Positions 24,693-58,600 of a DNA stretch of 64,000 nt are shown here, piece after piece; positions within the stretch are counted from its first letter, which is position 1; each line of letters starts with the position of its first letter. A program made the position numbers and the translations under genes. The stretch spans positions 48,484,001-48,548,000 of the forward strand of contig JBNRSN020000026.1 of NCBI GenBank assembly GCA_051313645.2, written 5' to 3'. This DNA comes from Centroscyllium fabricii (lineage: Eukaryota). The notes beneath the pieces were generated by a model. That model worked only from the letters and a program-made list of their open reading frames with translations, did not search any database and was not told where the DNA came from.

Positions 24693-25561
24693 ATGATTTG
24701 ATTGTAGTGGCCCAGAAATTCGGGTCTCCATGGGTGAGTACGCACAGAGTACCCACCCGTATGCTCAACAAAAGTGCTGGTTTCATGCATGCACTGCGCA
24801 AACACGGGAAACCGGAACTTCCGTTCCCTTAAATGAAGGGGTTCAGAGGTCGAACGCGTGCACAGGAGAGGCAGCACATGTGGCTGGAGCGTACGTTTTT
24901 TTTTCAGCTTTCTCTGGGAGGGTAAGTCTCCAGTAGTTACACTTTTTAAAAGTAGGCGCAAGGCCTGCTTTTAGCAAGGTAAGTGGTGAATTAATTAATA
25001 TTAAAACATTTTTTCCACAGGTTTATTATTTTTAAATACTTTAACATAGAAACATAGAAACATAGAAGATAGGAGCAGGAGTAGGCCATTCGGCCCTTCG
25101 AGCCTGCTCCGCCATTCAATGAGATCATGGCTGATCATCCAAACCCAGCACCCTGTCCCTGCCTTGTCCCCATATCCCTCGATCCCTGTAGAGCCTGCAC
25201 CGACACATATCCCACCCTATCCCCGTAACCCCACATATTCAATCCCCCTAACACTAAGGGTCAATTTATCATGGCCAATCAACCTAACCAATGTGGTAAC
25301 CCTTGTATATAGTTGTTTACCAGTGTAATTATTGTACCAATAATGGGCTGTGCAGATGTAAGGCACAGCCCTGTATACTGTGTAATACTGTTGGGAGCCA
25401 GGTCAGCCACACCTCTAACTCCTCCCCCAGGTGAGGCCCTTTATAGGTGGAAACTGACCGAGGCTCCTCATTCCTGTACAGAAGTTCGTCCGGAGGGTAG
25501 CTCCGTTCTTTTAATCTGAGGTATTGACGATACGTCAATTTTAATCGCTAAATATTTTAAA

Positions 25562-28500
25562 ATGGAGAGCAGCGCAGTCAAACCTGAGAAGCTGGACATC
25601 AGCCCCCAGGACCTGGCCGCTGCTACCACATTCGAACACTGGTTCGGCCTCCTGGAGGCCTACATGGACACCGCCAAGGCTACATCGGCCAGGAACAAAC
25701 TGCAGGTCCTCCGGTCGAGGATCTCCAGCAGGGTATTCTCCCTCATCAGGAACGCCTCAACCTACACAGCGGCCGTACTACTACTACGAAAATGCTACGA
25801 GCGCCCGGTCCACTCGGTCTATGCCCGACATGTGCTTGCGACCAGATCTCAGCTACCGGGTGAGTCCAATGAGCAGTTCGAGCAAGCGCTCCAGGCCCTG
25901 GTACGGGTCTGTGGCTGCCAAGCCAGAACAGCTGAAGAGGAGGCGGAACTCCTCATTCGGGACGCTTACGTTACGGGACTAAGGTGCGTGGAAGCCCGCC
26001 AGCGGCTACTGGAGAAAGACACTCTGTCCCTCGAGGAGGCGACTAAGATAGCCAAATCAGTAGAGGGGGCCCGAAACAAGTTACAGGCGTACAGCGGCAC
26101 TAACCCGCAAGCCTACGACATTTGGGCCGCGCCACAACGGGCCCAGGCCTGGGCAGCACCACAACGGGTCGAGACCCCCACGATGGCTGCGACAGCCACA
26201 AAAGATAAGCGCTGCTACTTCTGCAGCCAGGAACTGCACCCAAGAGCGAGATGCCCGGCCAGGACAGCGACCTGCGAGAGATGCGCTAAGAAAGGTCATT
26301 ACGCTAAAGCCTGCAGATCAGCTCCAGCAGCGCCTAACCCAAGGTACAACAGTGCAGCCTGTGAGAGCACCGACAGACACCAGGTAAGCTGCAATAGCAG
26401 TGCGATCCAGCGACGGTCCGGGGGTAGACAACAAGCGCCCCCATCTCCCACCCCGATGCGGCAAAGGCCGGCCAAGCGCGACCCCCCAACGCGGCCGGCT
26501 GCGTACGAATCACGGGCACCGCCAACCGGATCACCGCGGTCCGCTGCGTGCAAATCACGGGCGCCGCCAGCGCGCTCACAGCGGCCCACCATGTGCGACC
26601 CCGCGGCGAAGCCATTTTGTATCCAGGGCCCCTCCATGTGCGAGCCAGGGGCGCCGCCATTTTGTATCCAGGGCCCCTCCATGTGCGGGCCAGGGGCGCC
26701 ACCATTTTGTATCCAGGGCCCCACCATGTGCGAGCCAGGGGCGCCGCCATCTTGTGTACAGCCCCGACCAGCAAGGGCCCCACACACACGGAAACGCACG
26801 GCTGCGGCAGCCAAAATCAGAGTGAACCAGGACAGGCCACATACCCTGTCTAACTCTATAATGCCAATTTTGATTCACGGCTACACGGTTAACTGCCTTT
26901 TTGACAAAGGAAGCACTGAGAGTTTCATACACCCCGATACAGTGCAGCGCTGCGGAATGCAGGTCCGGCCCACTAACTACCAAGTCTCCCTAGCTTCACA
27001 GTCCCACACCGCAGACGTCACCGGCTACTGCTCCGTCGCGCTCACTGTCAAGGGGCGCGTGTACCGTAATTTTAAATTGTATACCCTCCAGCAGTTGTGT
27101 GCCCCAGCCTTACTTGGTTTGGATTTCCAGTGCCACCTCAAGAGCGTGACAATGGAGTTCGCTGGGACCTTGCCCCCCCTCAAAGTCAGTAGCCGGGACA
27201 ATCCCTTCCCAAAGCGGAGCCCGGCCTGCGGCCTCTCCACCCTGAAAATCGAACCCCCCTCGCTGTTCACCAACCTCGATCCGAAGTGCAAACCCATTGC
27301 TACTAAGAGTCGGCGGTACAGTGAGGGGGATCGCACGTTTATCAGGTCGGAGGTCGGGCGGATGCTGAAGGAGGGGATAATTGAAGCCAGCACCAGCCCC
27401 TGGCGCGCCCAAGTTGTAGTGGTGAAGTCTGGCGAGAAACAGCGGCTGGTTATCGATTACAGCCAGACTATCAACCACTACACCGGGCTCGACGCCTACC
27501 CCCTTCCCCGCATCTCAGACATGGTCAACCAGATCGCCCAGTACAAGGTGTTCTCCACGATCGACCTTAAATCGGCGTATCATCAGCTCCCGATTCGGAA
27601 AGCCGACCGCCCCTACACCGCCTTCGAGGCGAACGGTCGGCTCTACCACTTCCTCCGGGTCCCCTTTGGCGTGACCAACGGAGTGTCAGTGTTCCAACGG
27701 GAGATGGACCGCATGGTTGACCAAAATGACTTGCAGGCCACTTTCCCTTACCTGGACAACGTGACCATCTGCGGCCACGACCAGCAGGAGCACGATGCCA
27801 ATCTGGCCAAATTCCTCGACGCGGCGGACAAGCTGGACCTTACGTATAACAAGGACAAATGTGTCTTTAATATAGACCGGCTCGCCATCCTCGGATACGT
27901 GGTGGAGAACGGGGTCCTCCCACAGCGTATGCGACCCCTGCAAGAACTGCCCCTACCTCACAACCCCAAAGCCTTGAGGAGATGCCTAGGATTTTTCTCC
28001 TATTATGCACAATGGGTCCCACAGTTCGCAGATAAGGCTAGACCACTCCTCAAGGCTGCCATCTTCACCCTTTCTGTAGAAGCCCAAACGGCATTCGCAA
28101 GGATAAAGGAAGATATTATCAAGGCGACCATGCTCACTATTGATGAATCTATCCCTTTCCAGGTGGAGAGTCACGCTTCAGACTTTGCCCTTGCTGCCAC
28201 CCTGAATCAGGCAGGCAGGCCCGTAGCGTTTTTCTCCCGCACCTTACAGGGACCCGAAACTCGCCACTCCGCAGTGGAAAAGGAGGCCCAGGCCATCGTG
28301 GAGGCCGTGCGCTACTGGCATCATTACCTGGCCGGTAAGTGTTTTACCCTGCTCACTGACCAACGGTCGGTGGCGTTTATGTTTAATAATAAACTACGGG
28401 GTAAAATCAAGAATGATAAGATCCTGCGGTGGCAGATCGAACTCTCGACTTACGAGTATGACATTCTTTACCGACCAGGTAAACTCAATGAACCCCCAGA

Positions 28501-29779
28501 CGCACAGTCCAGGGGAACATGCGCCAGTGCCCAGCTAGACCGGCTGAAGGACCTCCATGACCGCCTTTGCCACCCGGGTGTCACCAGACTCGCCCACTTC
28601 GTTAAGTCCCGTAGCCTCCCCTACTCCATCACGGAGATCAAGGCTATGACCCGAGAGTGCCCTGTCTGCGCCGAGTGCAAACCCCACTTTTTCCGGCCAG
28701 ACACGGCGCACCTCATTAAGGCCACCCGCCCCTTTGAACGTCTCAGCGTGGACTTCAAAGGCCCCCTCCCTTCCACCGACCGCAATTCATACTTCCTCAC
28801 GGTAGTGGATGAGTTCTCCCGCTTCCCCTTCGCCTTCCCCTGCGCAGATATGATGAGCGCAACGGTGATCAAACACTTCACCACGCTGTTCGCCATTTTC
28901 GGTCTCCCCAGCTACATCCATAGCGACCGGGGGTCATCGTTCATGAGCGATGAACTGCACCAGTTTCTGCTCCAGAAAGGGGTTGCCACGAGCAGAACGA
29001 CCAGTTATAACCCCCGGGGGAACGGCCAGGTAGAAAGGGAGAATGGGATCATTTGGAAGGCGGTCACCCTGGCTCTCAAGTCCAGAGGCCTTCCAGTGTC
29101 CCATTGGCAGGCAGTCCTCCCAGACGCGCTGCACTCTATACGCTCTCTATTATGTACTGCTACTAACGCCACCCCGCACGATCTGATTTTCTCCTTCCCT
29201 AGGAAATCGACTTCGGGGACAGCTCTTCCTCCATGGCTGACGACTCCGGGGCCGGTTTGGCTTAGAAGACATGTCCGGAGCCACAAGACAGACCCCCTGG
29301 TGGACAAGGTACAGCTCCTACACGCGAACCCCCACTATGCATTCGTGCAGTTCCTGGACGGGCGTGAGGACACCGTGTCCATCAGGGACCTGGCTCCCGC
29401 AGGAAGCACCACCGCAGAGCCCCTGGCCGGCCAGCAGGCCGCTCAGCCGCGGTATCCAGAAAACTCACCAGACACACGATGGCCCCCGAGCTTCCCAGAA
29501 CAGTGGCCAGTACAGAACTACGACCCGGACGGCGGGGACCAGCCAGATCCATCGCCACCAGAAGCCACGGCACCCGATCAGTGGTCACCACCGGCAGATG
29601 CAAGTGGTACGAACCAGGAGGCACCACCACCAACACCGGAACGCCGGCGGTCCTCCAGGCAGACACGACCGCCGGACAGACTGATCATGAACTGTTCGGC
29701 CCATTCACCCCCCCCCCCCCCCCCCCCCCCGGACTTAAAATTTTCAAGAAGGGGTGAATGTGGTAACCCTTGTATATAG
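25562..29779 (+). CDS. Gag-Pol polyprotein (two CCHC knuckles, protease, RT, RNase H, integrase); open but probably defective
   Basis: CYFC…HPRARC, CERC…HYAKAC, LFDKGS, YLDN, HHCC and VDFKGP/SDRG. RNase H reads VESHASD and ENGVLPQR, versus VESDASD and ENGVIGPDPQR in the sister copy. Confidence 0.85.
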   Translation: MESSAVKPEKLDISPQDLAAATTFEHWFGLLEAYMDTAKATSARNKLQVLRSRISSRVFSLIRNASTYTAAVLLLRKCYERPVHSVYARHVLATRSQLPGESNEQFEQALQALVRVCGCQARTAEEEAELLIRDAYVTGLRCVEARQRLLEKDTLSLEEATKIAKSVEGARNKLQAYSGTNPQAYDIWAAPQRAQAWAAPQRVETPTMAATATKDKRCYFCSQELHPRARCPARTATCERCAKKGHYAKACRSAPAAPNPRYNSAACESTDRHQVSCNSSAIQRRSGGRQQAPPSPTPMRQRPAKRDPPTRPAAYESRAPPTGSPRSAACKSRAPPARSQRPTMCDPAAKPFCIQGPSMCEPGAPPFCIQGPSMCGPGAPPFCIQGPTMCEPGAPPSCVQPRPARAPHTRKRTAAAAKIRVNQDRPHTLSNSIMPILIHGYTVNCLFDKGSTESFIHPDTVQRCGMQVRPTNYQVSLASQSHTADVTGYCSVALTVKGRVYRNFKLYTLQQLCAPALLGLDFQCHLKSVTMEFAGTLPPLKVSSRDNPFPKRSPACGLSTLKIEPPSLFTNLDPKCKPIATKSRRYSEGDRTFIRSEVGRMLKEGIIEASTSPWRAQVVVVKSGEKQRLVIDYSQTINHYTGLDAYPLPRISDMVNQIAQYKVFSTIDLKSAYHQLPIRKADRPYTAFEANGRLYHFLRVPFGVTNGVSVFQREMDRMVDQNDLQATFPYLDNVTICGHDQQEHDANLAKFLDAADKLDLTYNKDKCVFNIDRLAILGYVVENGVLPQRMRPLQELPLPHNPKALRRCLGFFSYYAQWVPQFADKARPLLKAAIFTLSVEAQTAFARIKEDIIKATMLTIDESIPFQVESHASDFALAATLNQAGRPVAFFSRTLQGPETRHSAVEKEAQAIVEAVRYWHHYLAGKCFTLLTDQRSVAFMFNNKLRGKIKNDKILRWQIELSTYEYDILYRPGKLNEPPDAQSRGTCASAQLDRLKDLHDRLCHPGVTRLAHFVKSRSLPYSITEIKAMTRECPVCAECKPHFFRPDTAHLIKATRPFERLSVDFKGPLPSTDRNSYFLTVVDEFSRFPFAFPCADMMSATVIKHFTTLFAIFGLPSYIHSDRGSSFMSDELHQFLLQKGVATSRTTSYNPRGNGQVERENGIIWKAVTLALKSRGLPVSHWQAVLPDALHSIRSLLCTATNATPHDLIFSFPRKSTSGTALPPWLTTPGPVWLRRHVRSHKTDPLVDKVQLLHANPHYAFVQFLDGREDTVSIRDLAPAGSTTAEPLAGQQAAQPRYPENSPDTRWPPSFPEQWPVQNYDPDGGDQPDPSPPEATAPDQWSPPADASGTNQEAPPPTPERRRSSRQTRPPDRLIMNCSAHSPPPPPPPPDLKFSRRGECGNPCI
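26591..26760 (+). repeat. 45-bp coding tandem repeat (~3.7 units) between Gag and protease
   Basis: Unit ATGTGCGAGCCAGGGGCGCCGCCATTTTGTATCCAGGGCCCCTCC encodes MCEPGAPPFCIQGPS. Confidence 0.9.
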
Positions 29780-31939
29780 TTGTTTACCACTGTAATTATT
29801 GTGACAATAATGGGCTGTGCAGATGTAAGGCACAGCCCTGTATACTGTGTAATACTGTTGGGAGCCAGGTCAGCCACACCTCTAACTCCTCCCCCAGGTG
29901 AGGCCCTTTATAGTTGGAAACTGACCGAGGCTCCTCATTCCTGTCCGGAGGGTAGCTCCGTTCTTAGCGATTAAAAGCCTTTAGTTTCGGTAACTACTCG
30001 TCAACTCTTTTAATCTGAGGTATTGACGATACGTCAACCCGCACATCTTTGAAAGAAAGGTAAGACTTTTTAGCTCCGTTATTTCAAAAATTTAAATTAT
30101 TGTTTAAAATAGTTATTTTATGTAATTCATAGTTATTTTAAAAATGTGATTTTTTTAAAAATGTATTTGAAGTTTTAGTTATCTTTTGGGGCTTATCGTA
30201 TTTATAGTTCTGACAGCTCTTCCTGTCAATTTTATGAATGGGCATTCCCTGCTACCATTGGCTCTCCATGGCCCCCGTGATCCCAGGGGACGCTTCGAAC
30301 TAACTGCACCCCTGGGATACGCAAGCACTGCACGCCGGCAGTTGGAGGTGGCCCAGAATCGGAATCCCACGCGGGCCCACAGCTCAATGGCCGGTGCGCA
30401 AGCTAAGTGCAGGTTGGAGGCTTCAACACGCGGGAAGCGTCTGACCCGAATTTCCGGGCCATTGTATATTTGCAATGAAATGAAGTTTCCAAATATGCAA
30501 ACAGCTCAGCCTGAAACATATGCTCAACTTTGTTGTGTTTCCTACACATCTGCTTTGTGAATATTTATTTAGGGCTGGCCATACTTGAAAGGAATTAAAT
30601 ATAAACAGCACTCAGTTTGAAATATCATTTATATAGAACAGTGTTTGTACTGGGAACAACAGTCAAAGCAATTTGGGAAGCAGATTGCGTGACTCGTGAG
30701 CTTTTAAATATTTCAAAAGCTTCTTTAGAATTTGAGCCTTATAACTGTCTATTGTATGTTATAATTAAAGCATACTTCACTTCTGCAAATTCTATCAAAT
30801 TTGTTTTCATTTGTTTTTTTTTAAATGAGTCTTTTTTATTAAAATATCATTTAACTCCAAGAGTATGGAGTTTTGTGCTGTAAATCCTTGCACAATGGGA
30901 ACTCAATTGAGACGACCCAAATTTATTTTACTCAGGACGCCGAGTAGCGATTAGGAGGAGCAAACCAGAATCCCGAAGGCGATTGATTTTAAACTTTAGG
31001 GCGGGCAATTGGCGGAGCAGGCCCGTTCCATGGGTGAAGAAGACGGAGCCATTTTGCGGGCCAGCCCTTATTTAAAATGGAAGCTGCGAGCTGAGGGCAC
31101 CAAAGGTGGGAGCCTGGGCCGGTAGCAACCCCGATTTACATATTAAATGGGGCCTGCCGCTTGAAGCAGGCAGGCGCATTGGCCACCCAGTGGTAGGCCC
31201 CTCTAAAAGTGGCAGTGGGCAGACCATCGCCAACAACAGGACGGCGAGTCTACTGACTCCAGTTTGGGGCCATTACTGACCAATTGCCGATTTCAGCAAG
31301 TTAAAATTGACCACCGTGTGTCCGGCCTTGGTTTTAATACAGGATCCACAATTTAAAGAACTGTTCCTTCTAACCCACTACACCAGACCTGTGTCTTTTA
31401 CTTTTACTTTAACGCATCTAATGAGTGTTAACATGTGAAATTAAAACTGCTGACTTGCTAAAGCTTCCAGATCTACCATGAATTGATGGTTTTAAGATTG
31501 CAGGGTTCAGTAACTAGTATAAATGAAAGAAAGACTTGCATTTATATAGCGCCTTTCACGACCGCTGGACGCCCCCAATGAAATATATTTGAAGTGTAGT
31601 CAAAGGCAGGTACGGGGTACTGAGTTTGGATGATCAGCCATGGTCTCATTGAATGGCGGAGCAGGCTCGAGGGGCCGAATGGCCTACTCCTGCTCCTATC
31701 TTCTATGTTTCCATGTTTCTATGTTGTAATGTATGAACACGTCGATAAGAGTATGTCACCTGTATAATGACTTAGTTGATTCCCTGGTATTGTTTTGCTT
31801 CTAAACCAAAATAAAGTTGTGATGGGTAAAAATTCTAGAGTGAGCTGGAGAAAGTGCCTGTGTAATAATAATGCTGAGGGTGAGTAGTTGATTTTGGCTT
31901 TAAGAGGTCCTAAAGCTCAGTCCTGATAATCAAGTTCAC

Positions 31940-46059: not shown

Positions 46060-48515
46060 TGACGTATTGTCAATAATACACAAAGACGAATAGTTACCTC
46101 AACTAAAGGCTTTTATTAACTATAAACTGAGCTGGTACAGAGCTGGTCTTTGGCTGGGCTCAGGACAGGAAATGACTGGGGAATGGTGAGCGGCCACCTC
46201 TCTACTCCGACCTGAGGGGAGGAGTTAGAGGCGGGGTCAGTTCCTGCAGCCAGGTATCTACAGGTATATACAATTACAAGCATTACCACAGTAGGGTCCC
46301 TTACGGTACAACAATATATACATAGTGGTAAATGCAGGATTAGCACATTCACCCCTTCTTTAAAAATGAGTCCAGCGGGGTGAATGTGTGTCAACATTCA
46401 GCAATAAGTCTCTCAGGTGGCCTCGTCTGCCGAAGGGACCGGCGGGGTGCCGGTAATGGTGATTCCGCCCGCGGGATCAGGGGTGTGATGTCAGTCATCG
46501 GTGCCGGCGGCGGTCTGTTGGTCCCCTCGTCATCGGCTGGTGGAGTCGAGTGCCCTGGTGCGTGTGTGTACGTGGGCCAGCGGCCGGTTGGTGGTGGCTG
46601 GTAGAGCTGGGGCTCGGCCGGGGATTCAGTGTTCGTGATCCCGGCGGGCGCCAGGTCCCTGAACGAGACTGTGTCTTCGCGCCCGTCTGGGTATGTCACG
46701 TATGCGTAATGCGGGTTGGCGTGGAGCAGGTGCACCCGTTCCACCAGGGTGTCTGTCTTGTGACTGCGGACGTGCTTCGTAAGCAAGACCGGCCCCGGGG
46801 TGGTCAGCCACAGTGGGTGTTCAGTCCCCGAAGACGATTTCCTAGGAAAGCAAAACAATTTATCATGAGGTGTGGCATTGGTGGAGGTGCACAGCAGAGA
46901 GCGGATGGAATGGAGCGCGTTGGGGAGGACCTCTTGCCAACGGGAGATTGGAAGGCCTCTGGCGTGGTGAAGTGTTTTATCACCGTCGTGCTCATCATGT
47001 CTGGGCAGGGGAATGCGAAGGGGAAACGGGAGAACGCGTCGATGACCATGAGGAAGTACGAGTTGCGGTCGGTAGAGGGGAGGGGACCTTTGAAGTCCAC
47101 ACTCAGGCGCTCGAAGGGGCGGGTGCCCTTGATGAGGTGCGCTCTGTCCAGCCTGTAAAATCGGGGTTTGCACTCGGCACAGAGAGGGCACTCACTGGTC
47201 ATAGCCTTGATCTCCGAAATGGAGTAGGGGAGGCTGCGGCACTTGACAAAGTGGGCAAGTCTAGTGACACCCGGGTGGCAGAGGCTATCGTGGAGGGCCT
47301 GCAGCCGGTCGAGCTGGGCGCTGGCGCACGTTCCCCTGGACAGGGCGTCCGGGGGCTCGTTGAGCTTACCGGGCCGGTAAAGAATGTCGAACTTGTAAGT
47401 TGAGATTTCGATCCGCCACCGAAGGATCTTGTCATTCTTGATTTTACCCCGTTTGTTAAACATAAACGCTACCGACCGTTGGTCGGTGAGCAGGGTAAAT
47501 CTTTTACCGGCCAGGTAGTGGCGCCAGTAGCACACTGCCTCCACAATAGCCTGGGCCTCCTTTTCCACTGATGAATGGCGAATTTCGGGTCCCTTTAGGG
47601 TCCGGGAGAAGAACGCAACGGGCCTGCCCGCCAGGTTGAGGGAGGCAGCGAGGGCAAAGTCCGATGCGTCGCTCTCCACCTGGAAGGGGATGGACTCATC
47701 AACGGCGTGCATGGTAGCCTTGATGATGTCTCCCTTAATCAGGGTGAAGGCCGTTTGGGCTTCTGCCGAGAGTGGGAAGACGTCAGCCTTGAGAAGAGGC
47801 CTGGCCTTATCCGGGTACTGGGGCACCCATTGTGCGTAATAGGAGAAAAACCCCAGGCATCTCTTCAAGGCTTTGAGGTTGTAAGGTAAGGGCAGCTCCT
47901 GCAGGGGGCGCATACGTTGGGGATCGGGGCCGATGACCCCGTTTTCCACCACGTAGCCGAGGATGGCAAGCCGGTCCGTACTAAATGTACATTTGTCCTT
48001 ATTGTACGTCAGGTTCAGCCGTTGGGCCGTGCGAAGGAATTTGGCGAGATTGGCATTGTGATCCTGCTGGTCATGGCCGCAGATGGTCACGTTGTCCAGG
48101 TAGGGGAAGGTGGCCTGCAACTCGTTCTGGTCAACTTTGGAAGACGGACACTCCGTTAGTAACGCCGAAGGGGACCCGGAGGAAGTGATAGAGCTGACCA
48201 TTCGCCTCGAAGGCGGTGTACCAGCGGTCTGACGCCCGGATGGGGAGCTGGTGACTCGCCGACTTAAGGTCAATAGTGGAGAAGACCTTATACTGGGCGA
48301 TCTGGTTGACCATATCCAAGATTCGGGGGAGTGGGTACACGTCGAGACCAGTGTAGCGGTTAATAGTCTGGCTATAGTCTATGACCATGCGCAGTTTCTC
48401 GCCTGTCTTAACCACCACGACCTGGGCCCTCCAGGGGCTGGTGCTGGCCTCGATGATCCCTTCCCATAACAGGCGTCGACCTCCGTCCTGATAAACGCCC
48501 GGTCTCCTGCCACCC
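46060..48515 (-). mobile_element. 5'-truncated Gypsy element, sister of 25292-30036 (RT-RH-IN plus 3' LTR ~46060-46347)
   Basis: Frameshifted ORFs 48131-48418, 46804-48273 and 46391-47191 are highly similar to 25562-29779; PPT AAGAAGGGGTGAA; LTR ends TACGTCA. Confidence 0.92.
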
Positions 48516-50861: not shown

Positions 50862-51993
50862 ATAGAAACATAGAAACATAGAAACATAGAAGATAGGAGC
50901 AGGAGTAGGCCATTCGGCCCTTTGAGCCTGCTCCGCCATTCAATGAGATCATGGCTGATCATCCAAACCCAGCACCCCGCCCCTGCCCTCTCCCCATATC
51001 CCTCAATCGCTATCGAGCCTGCACTGACACATATCCCACCCTATCCCCGTAACCCCACATATTTAATCCCCCCAAACACACTAAGGGTCATAGAAACATA
51101 GAAACATAGAAACTAGGAGCAGGAGTAGGCCATTCAGCCCTTCGAGCCTGCTCCGCCATTCAATGAGATCATGGCTGATCATCCAAACCCAGTACCCCAC
51201 CCCTGCCCTCTCCCCATATCCCTCGATCCCTATATCGACACATATCCCACCTTATCCCCGTAACCCCATTATTCAATCCCCTTAACACTAGGAGTTAATT
51301 TATCAAGGCCAATCAACCTAACCCGCACATCTTTGGACTGTGGGAGGAAACCGGAGCACCCGGAGGAAACCTACGCAGACACGGGGAGAATGTGCAAACT
51401 CCACACAGATAGTACCCGAGGCTGGCTTTGAACCTGGGTCTCCAGTGCTGTGAGACAACCGTGCTAACCACTGTGCCACCGTGCCGCCCGTCTCGGGTCA
51501 ATTTATCCTGGTCAATCAACCTAACCCGCACATCTTTGGACTGTGGGAGGAAACCGGAGCACCCGAAGGAAACCCACTGACGTATCGTCAATAGTCTTAA
51601 TAAAACTAAAGACGTGTAGTTACCTTAACTAAAGGCTTTTATTAGATTACAAAGGAGCTATGCTCCGATCGAACATCAGGTACAGAATGAATGGGGACAG
51701 GTCAGTCCCCACCTATAAGGCACTCACCTGAGGGGAGGAGTTAGAGGTGTGGCTGACCTGACCCCGTGACAGTGTCGCAATACAAGGTAGTGTATTATGC
51801 ACCCGGCCGCTATACATGCAATACAATATTGGCACAATATTGAGGTGGTAAAAGAGTACATATATAACGGTTACCACACCCACGCAGACACGGGGAGAAT
51901 GTGCAAACTCCACACAGATAGTCACCCGAGGCTGGATTTGAACCCGGGTCTCTAGTGCTGTGAGGCAACAGTGCTAACCACTATGCCACCGTG
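50862..51993 (-). mobile_element. Two nested HE1-type SINEs (inner ~51090-51489)
   Basis: Reverse complement of 11589-11993; the outer copy resumes at GGGTCA. Confidence 0.88.
51578..51878 (-). mobile_element. Solo LTR of the 25292-type Gypsy lineage, inserted in a SINE
   Basis: Minus strand TGTGGTAACC…GATACGTCA; perfect 5-bp TSD CCCAC. Confidence 0.9.
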
Positions 51994-55611: not shown

Positions 55612-58600
55612 TCTGTACCTGGGGGTATTAGTGCATGAATCACAAAAAGTTAGTATGCAGGTGCAGCAAGTGATTAGGAAGGCCAATGGAGTCTTAGCCT
55701 TTATTGCTAGGGGGATAGAGTATAAAAGCAGGGAGGTCTTGCTGCAGCTGTACACAGTATTGGTGAGACCGCATTTGGAATACTGTGTGTCACAGGGGGC
55801 CTGTTCCTTTAAGAATGAAGAACAGTTTTTGCTGTGCTTCACAGCTGTTTTGAGGACTGGGTTTCCCTGTTATGTCGTTAATTATTCTATTATCTGTCTA
55901 TTGCTAGTTGTGTCCTGCTCTCATTGCCTCCAAGTTATTGGCTATCACCAAAGGGTTTGCTTGCTGGTTTTAGTTCATAAACTGGAGGTAGGCTTGAGAG
56001 CAGCGCGGGATCATTGTATTGTATGGTATGGTATGGTATTGTATTACTGAACTGGACTTCTACCACACATTCTTCAGGCCACTGGACGAGGTGGTTACTG
56101 CTGCTGTGCTGAGTGGCCGTCAGAGGCAAGGAGGTTTGGAGATCGACTGACTCAGCCTTTACTTTGCACTCTGCTATTTCAGGTGCTCAGGCTGAGTTGC
56201 CCGACAGGGGCATTGGGGTGGAACTCATATCACTCTGCCTTGACAGTGCGCCCTGCTATCGGGAACCCAGCAATGGACAACTCATATGTGGAGTAAGGGC
56301 GTTCCCCTGCTTGTGGATCTGAATCCACTACTTGGACATTCGTTTTCTGTTTCATCCGAACCCAGGTTTGGACATTGGATACCTGTATGCAGAAGCTGTT
56401 CCCAAATCCTCTACGAAGTATTTGGATTGTGATGTCCTACTCGCAGAGGAGAACTTGTTCGTTTCTCTTTAAGTATTTGGATTGTGATGTCCTGCTTCTA
56501 GAGGAGAGCTCGTTTAAGTTGGACAGTTATGCCTGGACTTGTATTCCTCGGGAGAATGACGCGCTTGGTTGCGTGGCACCCCTCTATCCATTACTCACTA
56601 TTTTGGGAAGTCTGTGCCAGTCTTTAGATAAGACTTGTGTCCAATATGTTTCTTATATAATTGTATGTTTATGCTATTTTATGGGGTTGTGTAATAAAGG
56701 AGTTTAGTTATAAAGGACGTTTCAGTGTCTCTGCATTTGGACCCCGCCCTCATTCCGTTTACACCATTCCGTTACAGAATGATCCCGCCAAATTTGGGGC
56801 TCAGCAGACACTGTAGCGTCTAAGCACTCCTTAAAATTTTTTTTTTGTAGACTGTTGTCTCTTCTCTGTACCCTCCGCCCACCCTATTTCGGCATATTGG
56901 GTATTTGGGCCGTCGCCGTCGGCCCTTAACGGGGGGGTCCTGTCACAGGGGGCCTGTTCCTTTAAGAATGAAGAACAGTTTTTGCTGTGCTTCACAGCTG
57001 TTTTGAGGACTGGGTTTCCCTGTTATGTCGTTAATTATTCTATTATCTGTCTATTGCTAGTTGTGTCCTGCTCTCATTGCCTCCAAGTTATTGGCTATCA
57101 CCAAAGGGTTTGCTTGCTGGTTTTAGTTCATAAACTGGAGGTAGGCTTGAGAGCAGCGCGGGATCATTGTATTGTATGGTATGGTATTGTATTACTGAAC
57201 TGGACTTCTACCACACATTCTTCAGGCCACTGGACGAGGTGGTTACTGCTGCTGTGCTGAGTGGCCGTCAGAGGCAAGGAGGTTTGGAGATCGACTGACT
57301 CAGCCTTTACTTTGCACTCTGCTATTTCAGGTGCTCAGGCTGAGTTGCCCGACAGGGGCATTGGGGTGGAACTCATATCACTCTGCCTTGACAGTGCGCC
57401 CTGCTATCGGGAACCCAGCAATGGACAACTCATATGTGGAGTAAGGGTGTTCCCCTGCTTGTGGATCTGAATCCACTACTTGGACATTCGTTTTCTGTTT
57501 CATCCGAACCCAGGTTTGGACATTGGATACCTGTATGCAGAAGCTGTTCCCAAATCCTCTACGAAGTATTTGGATTGTGATGTCCTACTCGCAGAGGAGA
57601 ACTTGTTCGTTTCTCTTTAAGTATTTGGATTGTGATGTCCTGCTTCTAGAGGAGAGCTCGTTTAAGTTGGACAGTTATGCCTGGACTTGTATTCCTCGGG
57701 AGAATGACGCGCTTGGTTGCGTGGCACCCCTCTATCCATTACTCACTATTTTGGGAAGTCTGTGCCAGTCTTTAGATAAGACTTGTGTCCAATATGTTTC
57801 TTATATAATTGTATGTTTATGCTATTTTATGGGGTTGTGTAATAAAGGAGTTTAGTTATAAAGGACGTTTCAGTGTCTCTGCATTTGGGCCCCGCCCTCA
57901 TTCCGTTTACACCATTCCGTTACAACTGTGTGCAGTTTTGGTGTCCATACTTAAGAAAGGATGTACTTGCCCTGGAGGCAGTGCAGAGAAGGTTTACACG
58001 GTTAATTCCAGCGATGAGGGGGTTGACATATGAGGAAAGGTTAAGTAGGTTGGGACTCTACTCTTTAGAGTTCAGAAGAATGAGAGGCGATCTTATTGAA
58101 ACGTATAAGATCGTGAGGGGCCTTGATCGGGTGGATGCGCCAAGGATGTTTCCAATGATCGGGGAGACTAGAACTAGGGGGCATAGTCTTAGAATAAGGG
58201 GGGTGCTCTTTTAAAACTGAGATGAGGAGAAACTTCTTCACCCAGAGGGTGGTTAATCTATGGAATTCACTGCCTTAGGGAGCTGTGGAAGCGGGAACAT
58301 TAAATAAATTTAAAACCGAAATAGACTGTTTTTTAGCAGACAAGGGAATTAGGGGTTACGGGGAGCAGGCAGGGAAGTGGACCTGAGTTATGGTTAGTAT
58401 AGTGAGACCTGAGTGATCTCCTGGACAAGTTTCGATCGCCTGGATTGGGGTCGGAGAGGAATTTCCCGGATTTTTTTCCCAAATTGGACCTGGGTTTTTA
58501 TCCGGTTTTTCGCCTCTCCCAGGAGATCACACGGTTCTTTGGGTGGGAGAAGGGTGATAGTGGTACGAAGGTTAGGGTAGGATCAGCAATGATCTTGATG

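Follow-up and report, generated by a model that had tools for sequence, protein, structure and literature searches.

How is reverse transcription initiated in a retrotransposon whose primer-binding site (PBS) is complementary to its own long terminal repeat (LTR)? The question is raised by a 4.75-kb Gypsy insertion in the 7.2-Gb genome of Centroscyllium fabricii, located within a stretch of 64,000 nucleotides (assembly GCA_051313645.2, contig JBNRSN020000026.1, positions 48,484,001 to 48,548,000, forward strand). The whole of this stretch is referred to as the window, and coordinates are counted from its first base. The copies described below suggest that this non-chromovirus Gypsy element is primed by ~52 nt from the 5' end of its own RNA, the last 13 bases of which pair with the PBS, following a cut predicted for RNase H. 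We assign this reading a probability of roughly 0.7. That priming is independent of transfer RNA (tRNA) and self-directed in some form is highly probable.

The PBS and its partner in the LTR

Directly behind the 5' LTR lie one spacer A and then TTTTAATCGCTAA (25539-25551), the exact reverse complement of positions 29964-29976 in the 3' LTR. The pairing is a real feature of the element. Both 13-mers occur only once within the window, and a 13-nt match positioned 0-5 nt from the LTR end arose in 2 of 100,000 shuffled LTRs. An earlier sequence-only reading of the window had reported this complementarity, including the ATTAAA that it covers, together with a Gag ATG (25562) 24 nt past the LTR and a partner segment roughly 55 nt after TTTATA. 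The comparison agrees on all of these points: the distance from TTTATA (29907-29912) to the partner is 52-57 nt in the shortened 3' LTR and is ~13 nt longer in intact sisters. Likewise borne out is the loss of the partner from the 5' LTR of this copy via a 44-bp deletion at a TCTT microhomology, as a result of which the duplex cannot form at the copy's own 5' end. The deletion was seen in this 5' LTR only. Among the best 30 sister loci, retrieved with a query that favoured LTRs containing the partner, all 17 normal 5' LTRs carry it, and the PBS is identical in 15 of the 17.

Covariation within the genome

For a truncated sister element of family B in the window (46060), the PBS had been predicted to be TTTTATTAACTAT. 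It is indeed present, paired with ATAGTTAATAAAA, in both of the 5' LTRs found among 20 loci. The prediction for a solo LTR of family C (51578) was correct as to the pairing but off by one base, because the solo LTR in the window is a minority variant. The PBS is TTTTATTAGCTTA in 10 of 11 rows of 5'-type LTRs, and its pairing with TAAGCTAATAAAA is perfect in 9 of the 11.

A pattern fixing part of the PBS matched the genome 24,145 times, and a reversed control gave no matches. The first 40 matches in list order were taken, and the 33 having an anchor independent of the PBS were analysed. The seven unanchored copies that were dropped include four with 12-13 matches, one with 11, and two with disrupted LTRs. 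In the 33 copies, with the AWT part of the hexamer imposed by the search pattern, Watson-Crick pairs occupy 224 of 231 free positions versus a shuffled mean of 162 ± 6.7. None of 10,000 shuffles equalled the observed value, and a G-U pair occurs at one of the 231 positions. Ten copies picked to be diverse contain substitutions at four of the 13 pairs; each of these four is altered in both partners, no pair shows a single-sided change, and all of the combinations pair. Controls with a slid register pair at 27-48%, as compared to 97.8% for the true register. The covariation between post-LTR bases and their LTR partner that had been put forward as a check is thus found, double-sided changes included. 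Pairing, register, and covariation are direct observations. Given that the genome contains at least nine distinct PBS types, each matching its own LTR, and that pairing recurs in other hosts, chance is unlikely.

The same diversity bears on whether a host tRNA, a tRNA half, or another small RNA might act as the primer, the match to the LTR then being incidental. Priming by half-tRNAs exists in copia lineages (PMC6317226). A PBS beginning with TTT, however, cannot pair with a CCA end, and every one of the nine or more PBS types here and of the ~10 elsewhere matches its own LTR. A host primer is therefore extremely improbable. An Rfam search with the LTR/PBS region yielded no meaningful match and one chance match with an E value of 2.6, host tRNA halves not being searched directly. 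A genome search for the partner with CCA directly after it, which is a poor test, gave two matches.

Extended copies and the predicted start of the RNA

In one sister element, L020, the complement runs for 52 nt instead of 13. Pattern searches located 22, 229, and 32 genome places, 283 in all, at which the complement continues past the 13 bases, and reversed-pattern controls located none. These places correspond to ~1% of the normal count, the search patterns for extended and normal copies being not exactly matched. All 22, the first 30 of the 229, and the first 30 of the 32 were measured, for a total of 82 loci with 68 distinct junctions. The transcription start was predicted separately from a TATA box and an initiator-like CATT ~30 nt further on, 51-53 nt from the end of the duplex. 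Both motifs are so positioned in all 82 reference LTRs, which had passed a filter requiring their presence.

The 68 junctions are distributed as follows: 18 within the predicted first ~50 nt, 14 at the start ± 2 nt, 8 partway into U3 within the ~165 nt beyond, and 28 at the LTR edge. The pile-up at the start is significant relative to the density inside (P = 1e-5), and beyond the start the density drops by ~14-fold (P = 2e-10). The sequence beyond the start-site junction differs in all 14 cases; it is mostly gag or pol, often joined at a short microhomology, and thus a single shared microhomology cannot explain the pile-up. An RNA that begins there would explain it, whereas a DNA template would continue through that position. 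Whereas the integrated products are observed directly, the RNA start is reached through them indirectly. The sequence-only reading had considered the partner segment probably not to be the transcript 5' end, and the run-off ends, clustered at the predicted start, concur: on this indirect evidence the pairing segment, unlike that of Tf1, is probably not the extreme 5' end of the transcript, which maps ~40 nt upstream of it. Assembled contigs from three RNA runs contained nothing on transcript starts or ends, and a search for polyadenylated retrocopies, by which the poly(A) site might be mapped, returned one uninformative match.

Eight loci (L032, L036, L038, L041, L042, L044, L045, and L047) share one common jump of the primer copy into gag, with two variants and seven flanks. 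The jump may have recurred as an error, or else these loci belong to a non-autonomous lineage that went on moving with a 53-bp pairing.

The distribution of junctions is also relevant to a self-primer derived from elsewhere. It could stem from the same segment within the 3' R of packaged RNA, or it could be a short capped transcript that acts in trans after its release by host cleavage or premature termination. The 28 of 68 junctions that traverse U3, and the six loci that reach the complement of the polypurine tract, are what copying of an RNA 3' end would yield. In this genome, moreover, a poly(A)-type hexamer stands at the end of the segment and could be bound by host factors. Against this, the ends are 14-fold denser in the first 52 nt than beyond and pile up at the start, and the hexamer is non-canonical in most families outside this genome. 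Host cleavage normally occurs 10-30 nt after a poly(A) hexamer rather than at its end. A primer of such origin is quite unlikely.

Thirty-one loci extend to the LTR edge, and both ends are visible in 12; the other 19 full-length fold-back loci have no left end within 1.5 kb. Seven of the 12 are 0.5-kb inverted structures flanked by 5-bp duplications, six of which are perfect and one of which matches in four of five bases. The remaining five run on into the polypurine-tract complement, as does L257, the left end of which is out of view. In 11 of the 12 loci, identity between the arms is 98-100%. For the six compared, the identity between arms of one element is 98.7-99.6% versus 91.8-98.7% between elements. 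The 5-bp duplications indicate that the seven fold-back copies bearing them existed as DNA before integration.

The seven flanked structures (L031, L224, L241, L243, L244, L260, and L263) are inverted-repeat mini-elements with two U3 ends, and in annotation tools they would pass for miniature inverted-repeat transposable elements. Host replication slippage is ruled out for them by the 5-bp duplications; individual internal-jump copies may still owe their origin to it. In L098, L105, L116, and 19 fold-back loci the LTRs are broken within R/U5, in several cases by the apparent ends of other LTR elements, and a preference for nested insertion is possible.

A chromovirus in the same window

A second Gypsy element occupies 16.2-21.6 kb of the window on the minus strand. 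It is sushi-like, with a chromodomain, a Tf2-type SH3 domain, and near-identical LTRs. Its 11-nt self-complement starts ~31 nt after the TATA box, which is the Tf1 geometry. Throughout the genome its junctions number 691 normal, with an exact PBS, and none extended. At the rate seen for the studied element, ~8 extended copies would be expected by arithmetic for this one pattern of one family. The two elements share 27% identity. Neither a Chromo nor an SH3_Tf2-1 domain was matched in the protein of the studied element or in three relatives, and the chromovirus, as positive control, matched both. The assignment of the studied element as a non-chromovirus in the sequence-only reading thus holds.

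The chromovirus provides a reference for the possibility that the studied element itself has plain Tf1 geometry. A second start would then coincide with the pairing segment, the 5'-terminal primer would be 13 nt long, and the longer copies would come from strong-stop DNA mis-annealed to longer RNAs. Retention of exactly 13 nt in normal elements (24,145 pattern matches) would in that case need no stop signal, and, without a clear TATA box in outside relatives, the start there could differ. The placement of the TATA box and initiator 51-53 nt from the duplex end argues otherwise, as does the run-off pile-up, which implies that RNA from that start is present in particles. Furthermore, the element of true Tf1 geometry in the same genome shows 0 extended against 691 normal junctions. 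Plain Tf1 geometry is accordingly unlikely.

Relatives in other hosts

The closest named proteins, at 72-79% identity, are from sharks and rays. Named relatives with 57-67% identity come from corals, a jellyfish, mussels, and insects. Of 80 metagenome loci, 22 were testable in that they contained a recognisable Gag start and enough upstream DNA, and 58 were dropped. A complement of 11-18 nt, starting 1-3 nt after the CA of the LTR (1 nt in intact copies), was observed in 18 of the 22, with its partner ending 35-67 nt before the LTR end. By our own grouping the loci fall into ~10 families. The partners end in TAAA or nearly so. AATAAA or ATTAAA is found in only four of the families, the other six having GTTAAA, TTTAAA, or another non-canonical hexamer. 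In L134 a separate AATAAA lies outside the duplex, ~25 nt downstream. No relative was found among 83 candidate stretches from viral contigs.

When leaders were folded, the duplex closed a loop in all eight tried, and in most a hairpin immediately follows the partner (z-scores of -0.9 to -4.2). Compared with the three-duplex "pretzel" of Tf1-type self-priming, in which LTR sequence pairs with both flanks of the PBS, the predicted folds are multiloops with hairpins; their side helices are near-invariant, such that covariation is uninformative with respect to them. At L139:2752-2770, one base just past the PBS differs from three sisters and lengthens the match to the element's own LTR, possibly through primer-templated conversion.

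These families speak to the second proposal of the sequence-only reading, a fold-back that hides the 5' poly(A) signal; priming would then fall to some other RNA. In the families of this genome the duplex does cover ATTAAA or AATAAA and can form only at the 5' end, so that concealment may be a side benefit. The hexamer in the 33-copy set is no evidence for it, because AWT was set by the search pattern. As a main function concealment is not supported: the hexamer is non-canonical in six of ~10 outside families, and the AATAAA of L134 is left free. In addition, the duplex always begins 1 nt after the LTR CA, the register needed by a primer, G-U pairs are nearly absent (1/231), and the genome retains integrated DNA that was extended from the duplex. 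Concealment with priming by another RNA is very improbable.

Two CCHC motifs are present in 94 of 120 relatives. The catalytic motif of the reverse transcriptase (RT), YLDN in the window copy (near 27751-27762), is YxDN in 91 of the 120 and YxDD in 23, with no match in six. It is unusual for an active RT lineage to have Asn in place of the second Asp, and this motif constitutes a second biochemical question.

Proposed priming pathway

In the pathway that we favour, transcription would begin at the initiator ~30 nt past the TATA box, a motif-based prediction supported by the genomic run-off ends. Folding of the leader would then bring the PBS into a duplex with the 13-nt segment whose last bases are TAAAA. 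Covariation shows this pairing; the multi-hairpin loop that the duplex closes is a fold prediction. A cut at the A-run's end or immediately beside it, by analogy with Tf1 presumably made by the element's own RNase H, would release a primer of ~52 nt, of which 39 nt would form an unpaired body with hairpins. Minus-strand DNA would copy U5 and the short remainder of R before transfer to the 3' end, as in the standard pathway. Plus-strand strong-stop DNA would in turn copy the primer, usually with retention of 13 nt. Copying of the primer would rewrite the PBS from the LTR and keep the two matched, which fits the scarcity of G-U intermediates. In ~1% of insertions the copy would overrun, to be fixed by a jump into gag or pol or by fold-back; the products of these events are seen, and the route to them is the part proposed here.

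Several points weigh against the ~52-nt primer. The start, the cut, and the primer itself are predictions from genome sequence. For the normal stop at 13 nt, the small hairpin 4 nt further on and removal of the primer by RNase H are no more than candidates. Strong-stop DNA ending at 13 nt and mis-annealed to uncut RNA would run off at the same start, in which case the run-off maps the RNA 5' end without strictly proving that the primer keeps its body. The 28 of 68 junctions at the LTR edge, including six loci that enter the polypurine-tract complement, indicate that other templates, either plus-strand DNA or the RNA 3' end, are used as well. The chromovirus control is a single exact pattern from a single family. 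TATA box and initiator were not confidently placed in outside relatives, and thus the 52-nt length is supported only for the families of this genome. Finally, the covariation statistics treat copies as unrelated.

A broader proposal is only slightly favoured: that these elements form a pan-animal Gypsy lineage, from sharks and rays to corals, jellyfish, mussels, and insects, in which self-priming evolved independently of Tf1/sushi. Its primer would be capped, structured, tRNA-sized, and taken from the first ~52 nt, its RT would be mostly YxDN, its PBS and LTR would be kept in step, and it would spawn inverted-repeat mini-elements.

Relationship to known elements

In tRNA-primed retroviruses and Ty3, the primer pairs only through a short stretch at its 3' end and has a longer, unpaired, structured body; reading beyond the paired part results in faulty plus-strand transfer. 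The primer of the studied element, in contrast, would be its own RNA and would lack a modified base at which copying could stop. The element is like Tf1 and Tf2 of Schizosaccharomyces pombe and the Tf1/sushi chromoviruses in having no tRNA PBS, a PBS that pairs with its own R, and flanking hairpins (PMC7175516, PMC11042837, bioRxiv 2022.12.06.519325). In Tf1 an 11-nt 5' primer is cut by RNase H (PMC7175516), and about half of the cDNA retains a single-stranded DNA copy of the primer (PMC11042837). Plus-strand DNA of Tf1 carries a copy of the primer at its 3' end, and the same would apply to the studied element (PMC7175516, PMC11042837). Whereas in Tf1 the first 11 nt of the RNA pair, here the pairing involves 13 nt ending ~52 nt from the mapped start. 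The studied element also differs from Tf1/sushi by its lack of a chromodomain or Tf2-type SH3 domain, its two CCHC knuckles, and its YxDN motif, and its read-through and fold-back insertions have no counterpart found for the chromovirus in the window. Of the sequence-only suggestion of a second, different tRNA-independent priming mode, the tRNA independence stands, given covariation here and in distant relatives and integrated DNA extended from the duplex. The mode, however, appears to be a modified form of Tf1-type self-priming and not an unrelated one.

Self-priming has been predicted from post-LTR/LTR complementarity in the plant copia TAR lineage (Houba, Osr-1) and in moss Tcn1 (PMC6317226). 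TAR thus resembles the studied element in self-priming outside the chromoviruses, in another superfamily or clade and in other hosts. The portions of that paper compared give neither a primer length nor a mapped start for TAR or Tcn1 (PMC6317226).

Target duplications of 5 bp flank 11 solo LTRs of the sisters, 8 of them perfect. A Gag with two knuckles and an open reading frame (ORF) of ~1,200 residues are reminiscent of Mag and Cigr-1, two knuckles being typical of Mag. Most mosquito Mag elements have a single short ORF and 5-bp duplications, and the studied element shares the single ORF and the 5-bp duplications (PMC3286476). It has no tRNA-Leu, -Ser, or -Arg PBS, unlike those elements (PMC3286476), and Cigr-1 is listed under Mag in the supplement of PMC6238403. 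The Mag-like Gag and the 5-bp duplications may serve as a lead to membership in the Mag lineage or Cigr-1 clade. The label Saci2 was not adopted, as the duplications of Saci2 elements are 4 bp long and tRNA PBSs have been reported for them. A literature search found nothing that places the element with Cigr-1, Cigr1/Saci2, or MolGy.

To our knowledge, self-priming has been demonstrated experimentally for fission-yeast elements only, and in animals it is treated as a chromovirus trait. Repbase notes reportedly mention self-priming zebrafish Gypsy families. In full-text literature, searched mostly without subscription papers and Repbase, no description of self-priming in an animal non-chromovirus Gypsy element was found (sources include PMC3601003, PMC6934838, PMC2774666, PMC12471100, and PMC7472051). 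If the present reading is true, a very abundant non-chromovirus lineage, with >24,000 5' junctions in this genome, bears on whether hairpin priming is ancestral or has arisen repeatedly. Such a lineage would also evade both control by tRNA fragments and PBS-based annotation. Fossil read-through copies offer a route to the RNA start and the primer length from genome sequence alone.

Features of the element and the window

The coordinates of the element and its sisters are provided in Table 1. The typical Ty3/Gypsy features are present, namely TG...CA LTRs, a polypurine tract, and the order protease (PR), RT, RNase H, and integrase (IN), and the nearest solved RT structure is that of Ty3. In the window copy the protease and RNase H motifs deviate from those of relatives. 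The 3' LTR lacks 12 nt that are present in the 5' LTR, and the remainder aligns with 230 matches and 4 mismatches. Covariation of the CGGAG/CTCCG hairpin is weak, with both sides changed in one pair, and the U5 hairpin is near-invariant across the copies compared, so covariation is uninformative for it.

Table 1. Positions of the element, its parts, and its sister copies within the window.
Feature	Position	Strand	Remarks
Left target-site copy ACCAA	25287..25291	+	
5' LTR, TG...CA	25292..25537	+	private 44-bp deletion that takes out the pairing segment
TATA-like box TTTATA	25440..25445	+	3' LTR copy 29907-29912; spacing to initiator conserved between families
Predicted transcription start, A of initiator-like TCATTCC	25470	+	3' LTR copy 29937; read-through copies end here
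Small hairpin CGGAG/CTCCG	25491..25505	+	putative unpaired body of the primer; 3' LTR copy 29946-29960
Possible U5 hairpin just before PBS	25523..25539	+	fold prediction; rival pairing with upstream CGTC also predicted
13-nt PBS	25539..25551	+	complementary to the element's own R segment
Single Gag-PR-RT-RNase H-IN frame, 1405 aa	25562..29779	+	two CCHC knuckles, RT motif YLDN, no chromodomain
Polypurine tract	29746..29758	+	ends in AA before the 3' LTR
3' LTR, 278 nt	29759..30036	+	290-291 nt in sisters
Pairing segment TTAGCGATTAAAA	29964..29976	+	ATTAAA at 29970-29975; nt ~40-52 of the intact transcript; putative primer 3' end
Hairpin TAGTT/AACTA	29982..29996	+	immediately 3' of the predicted cut; in outside relatives a hairpin of different sequence at the same position
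Right target-site copy ACCCG	30037..30041	+	3/5 bases match the left copy ACCAA
5'-truncated sister element, family B	46060..48497	-	3' LTR 46060-46347; pairing segment 46111-46123
Solo LTR of sister family C	51578..51878	-	GTGGG duplication; pairing segment 51637-51649, one-base variant

The AA of the left target-site copy may be an unprocessed two-base overhang of the U3 end retained at integration, given that the polypurine tract ends in AA. Between Gag and protease, a 45-bp tandem repeat is present in four in-frame copies (26534-26758), and as a consequence the frame is longer than those of the invertebrate relatives at ~1,200 residues. Elsewhere in the window, at 55788-57465, direct repeats of ~530 bp, which are 97-99% identical and start with TGTCAC, lie ~1.15 kb apart and probably represent a short non-autonomous LTR element.

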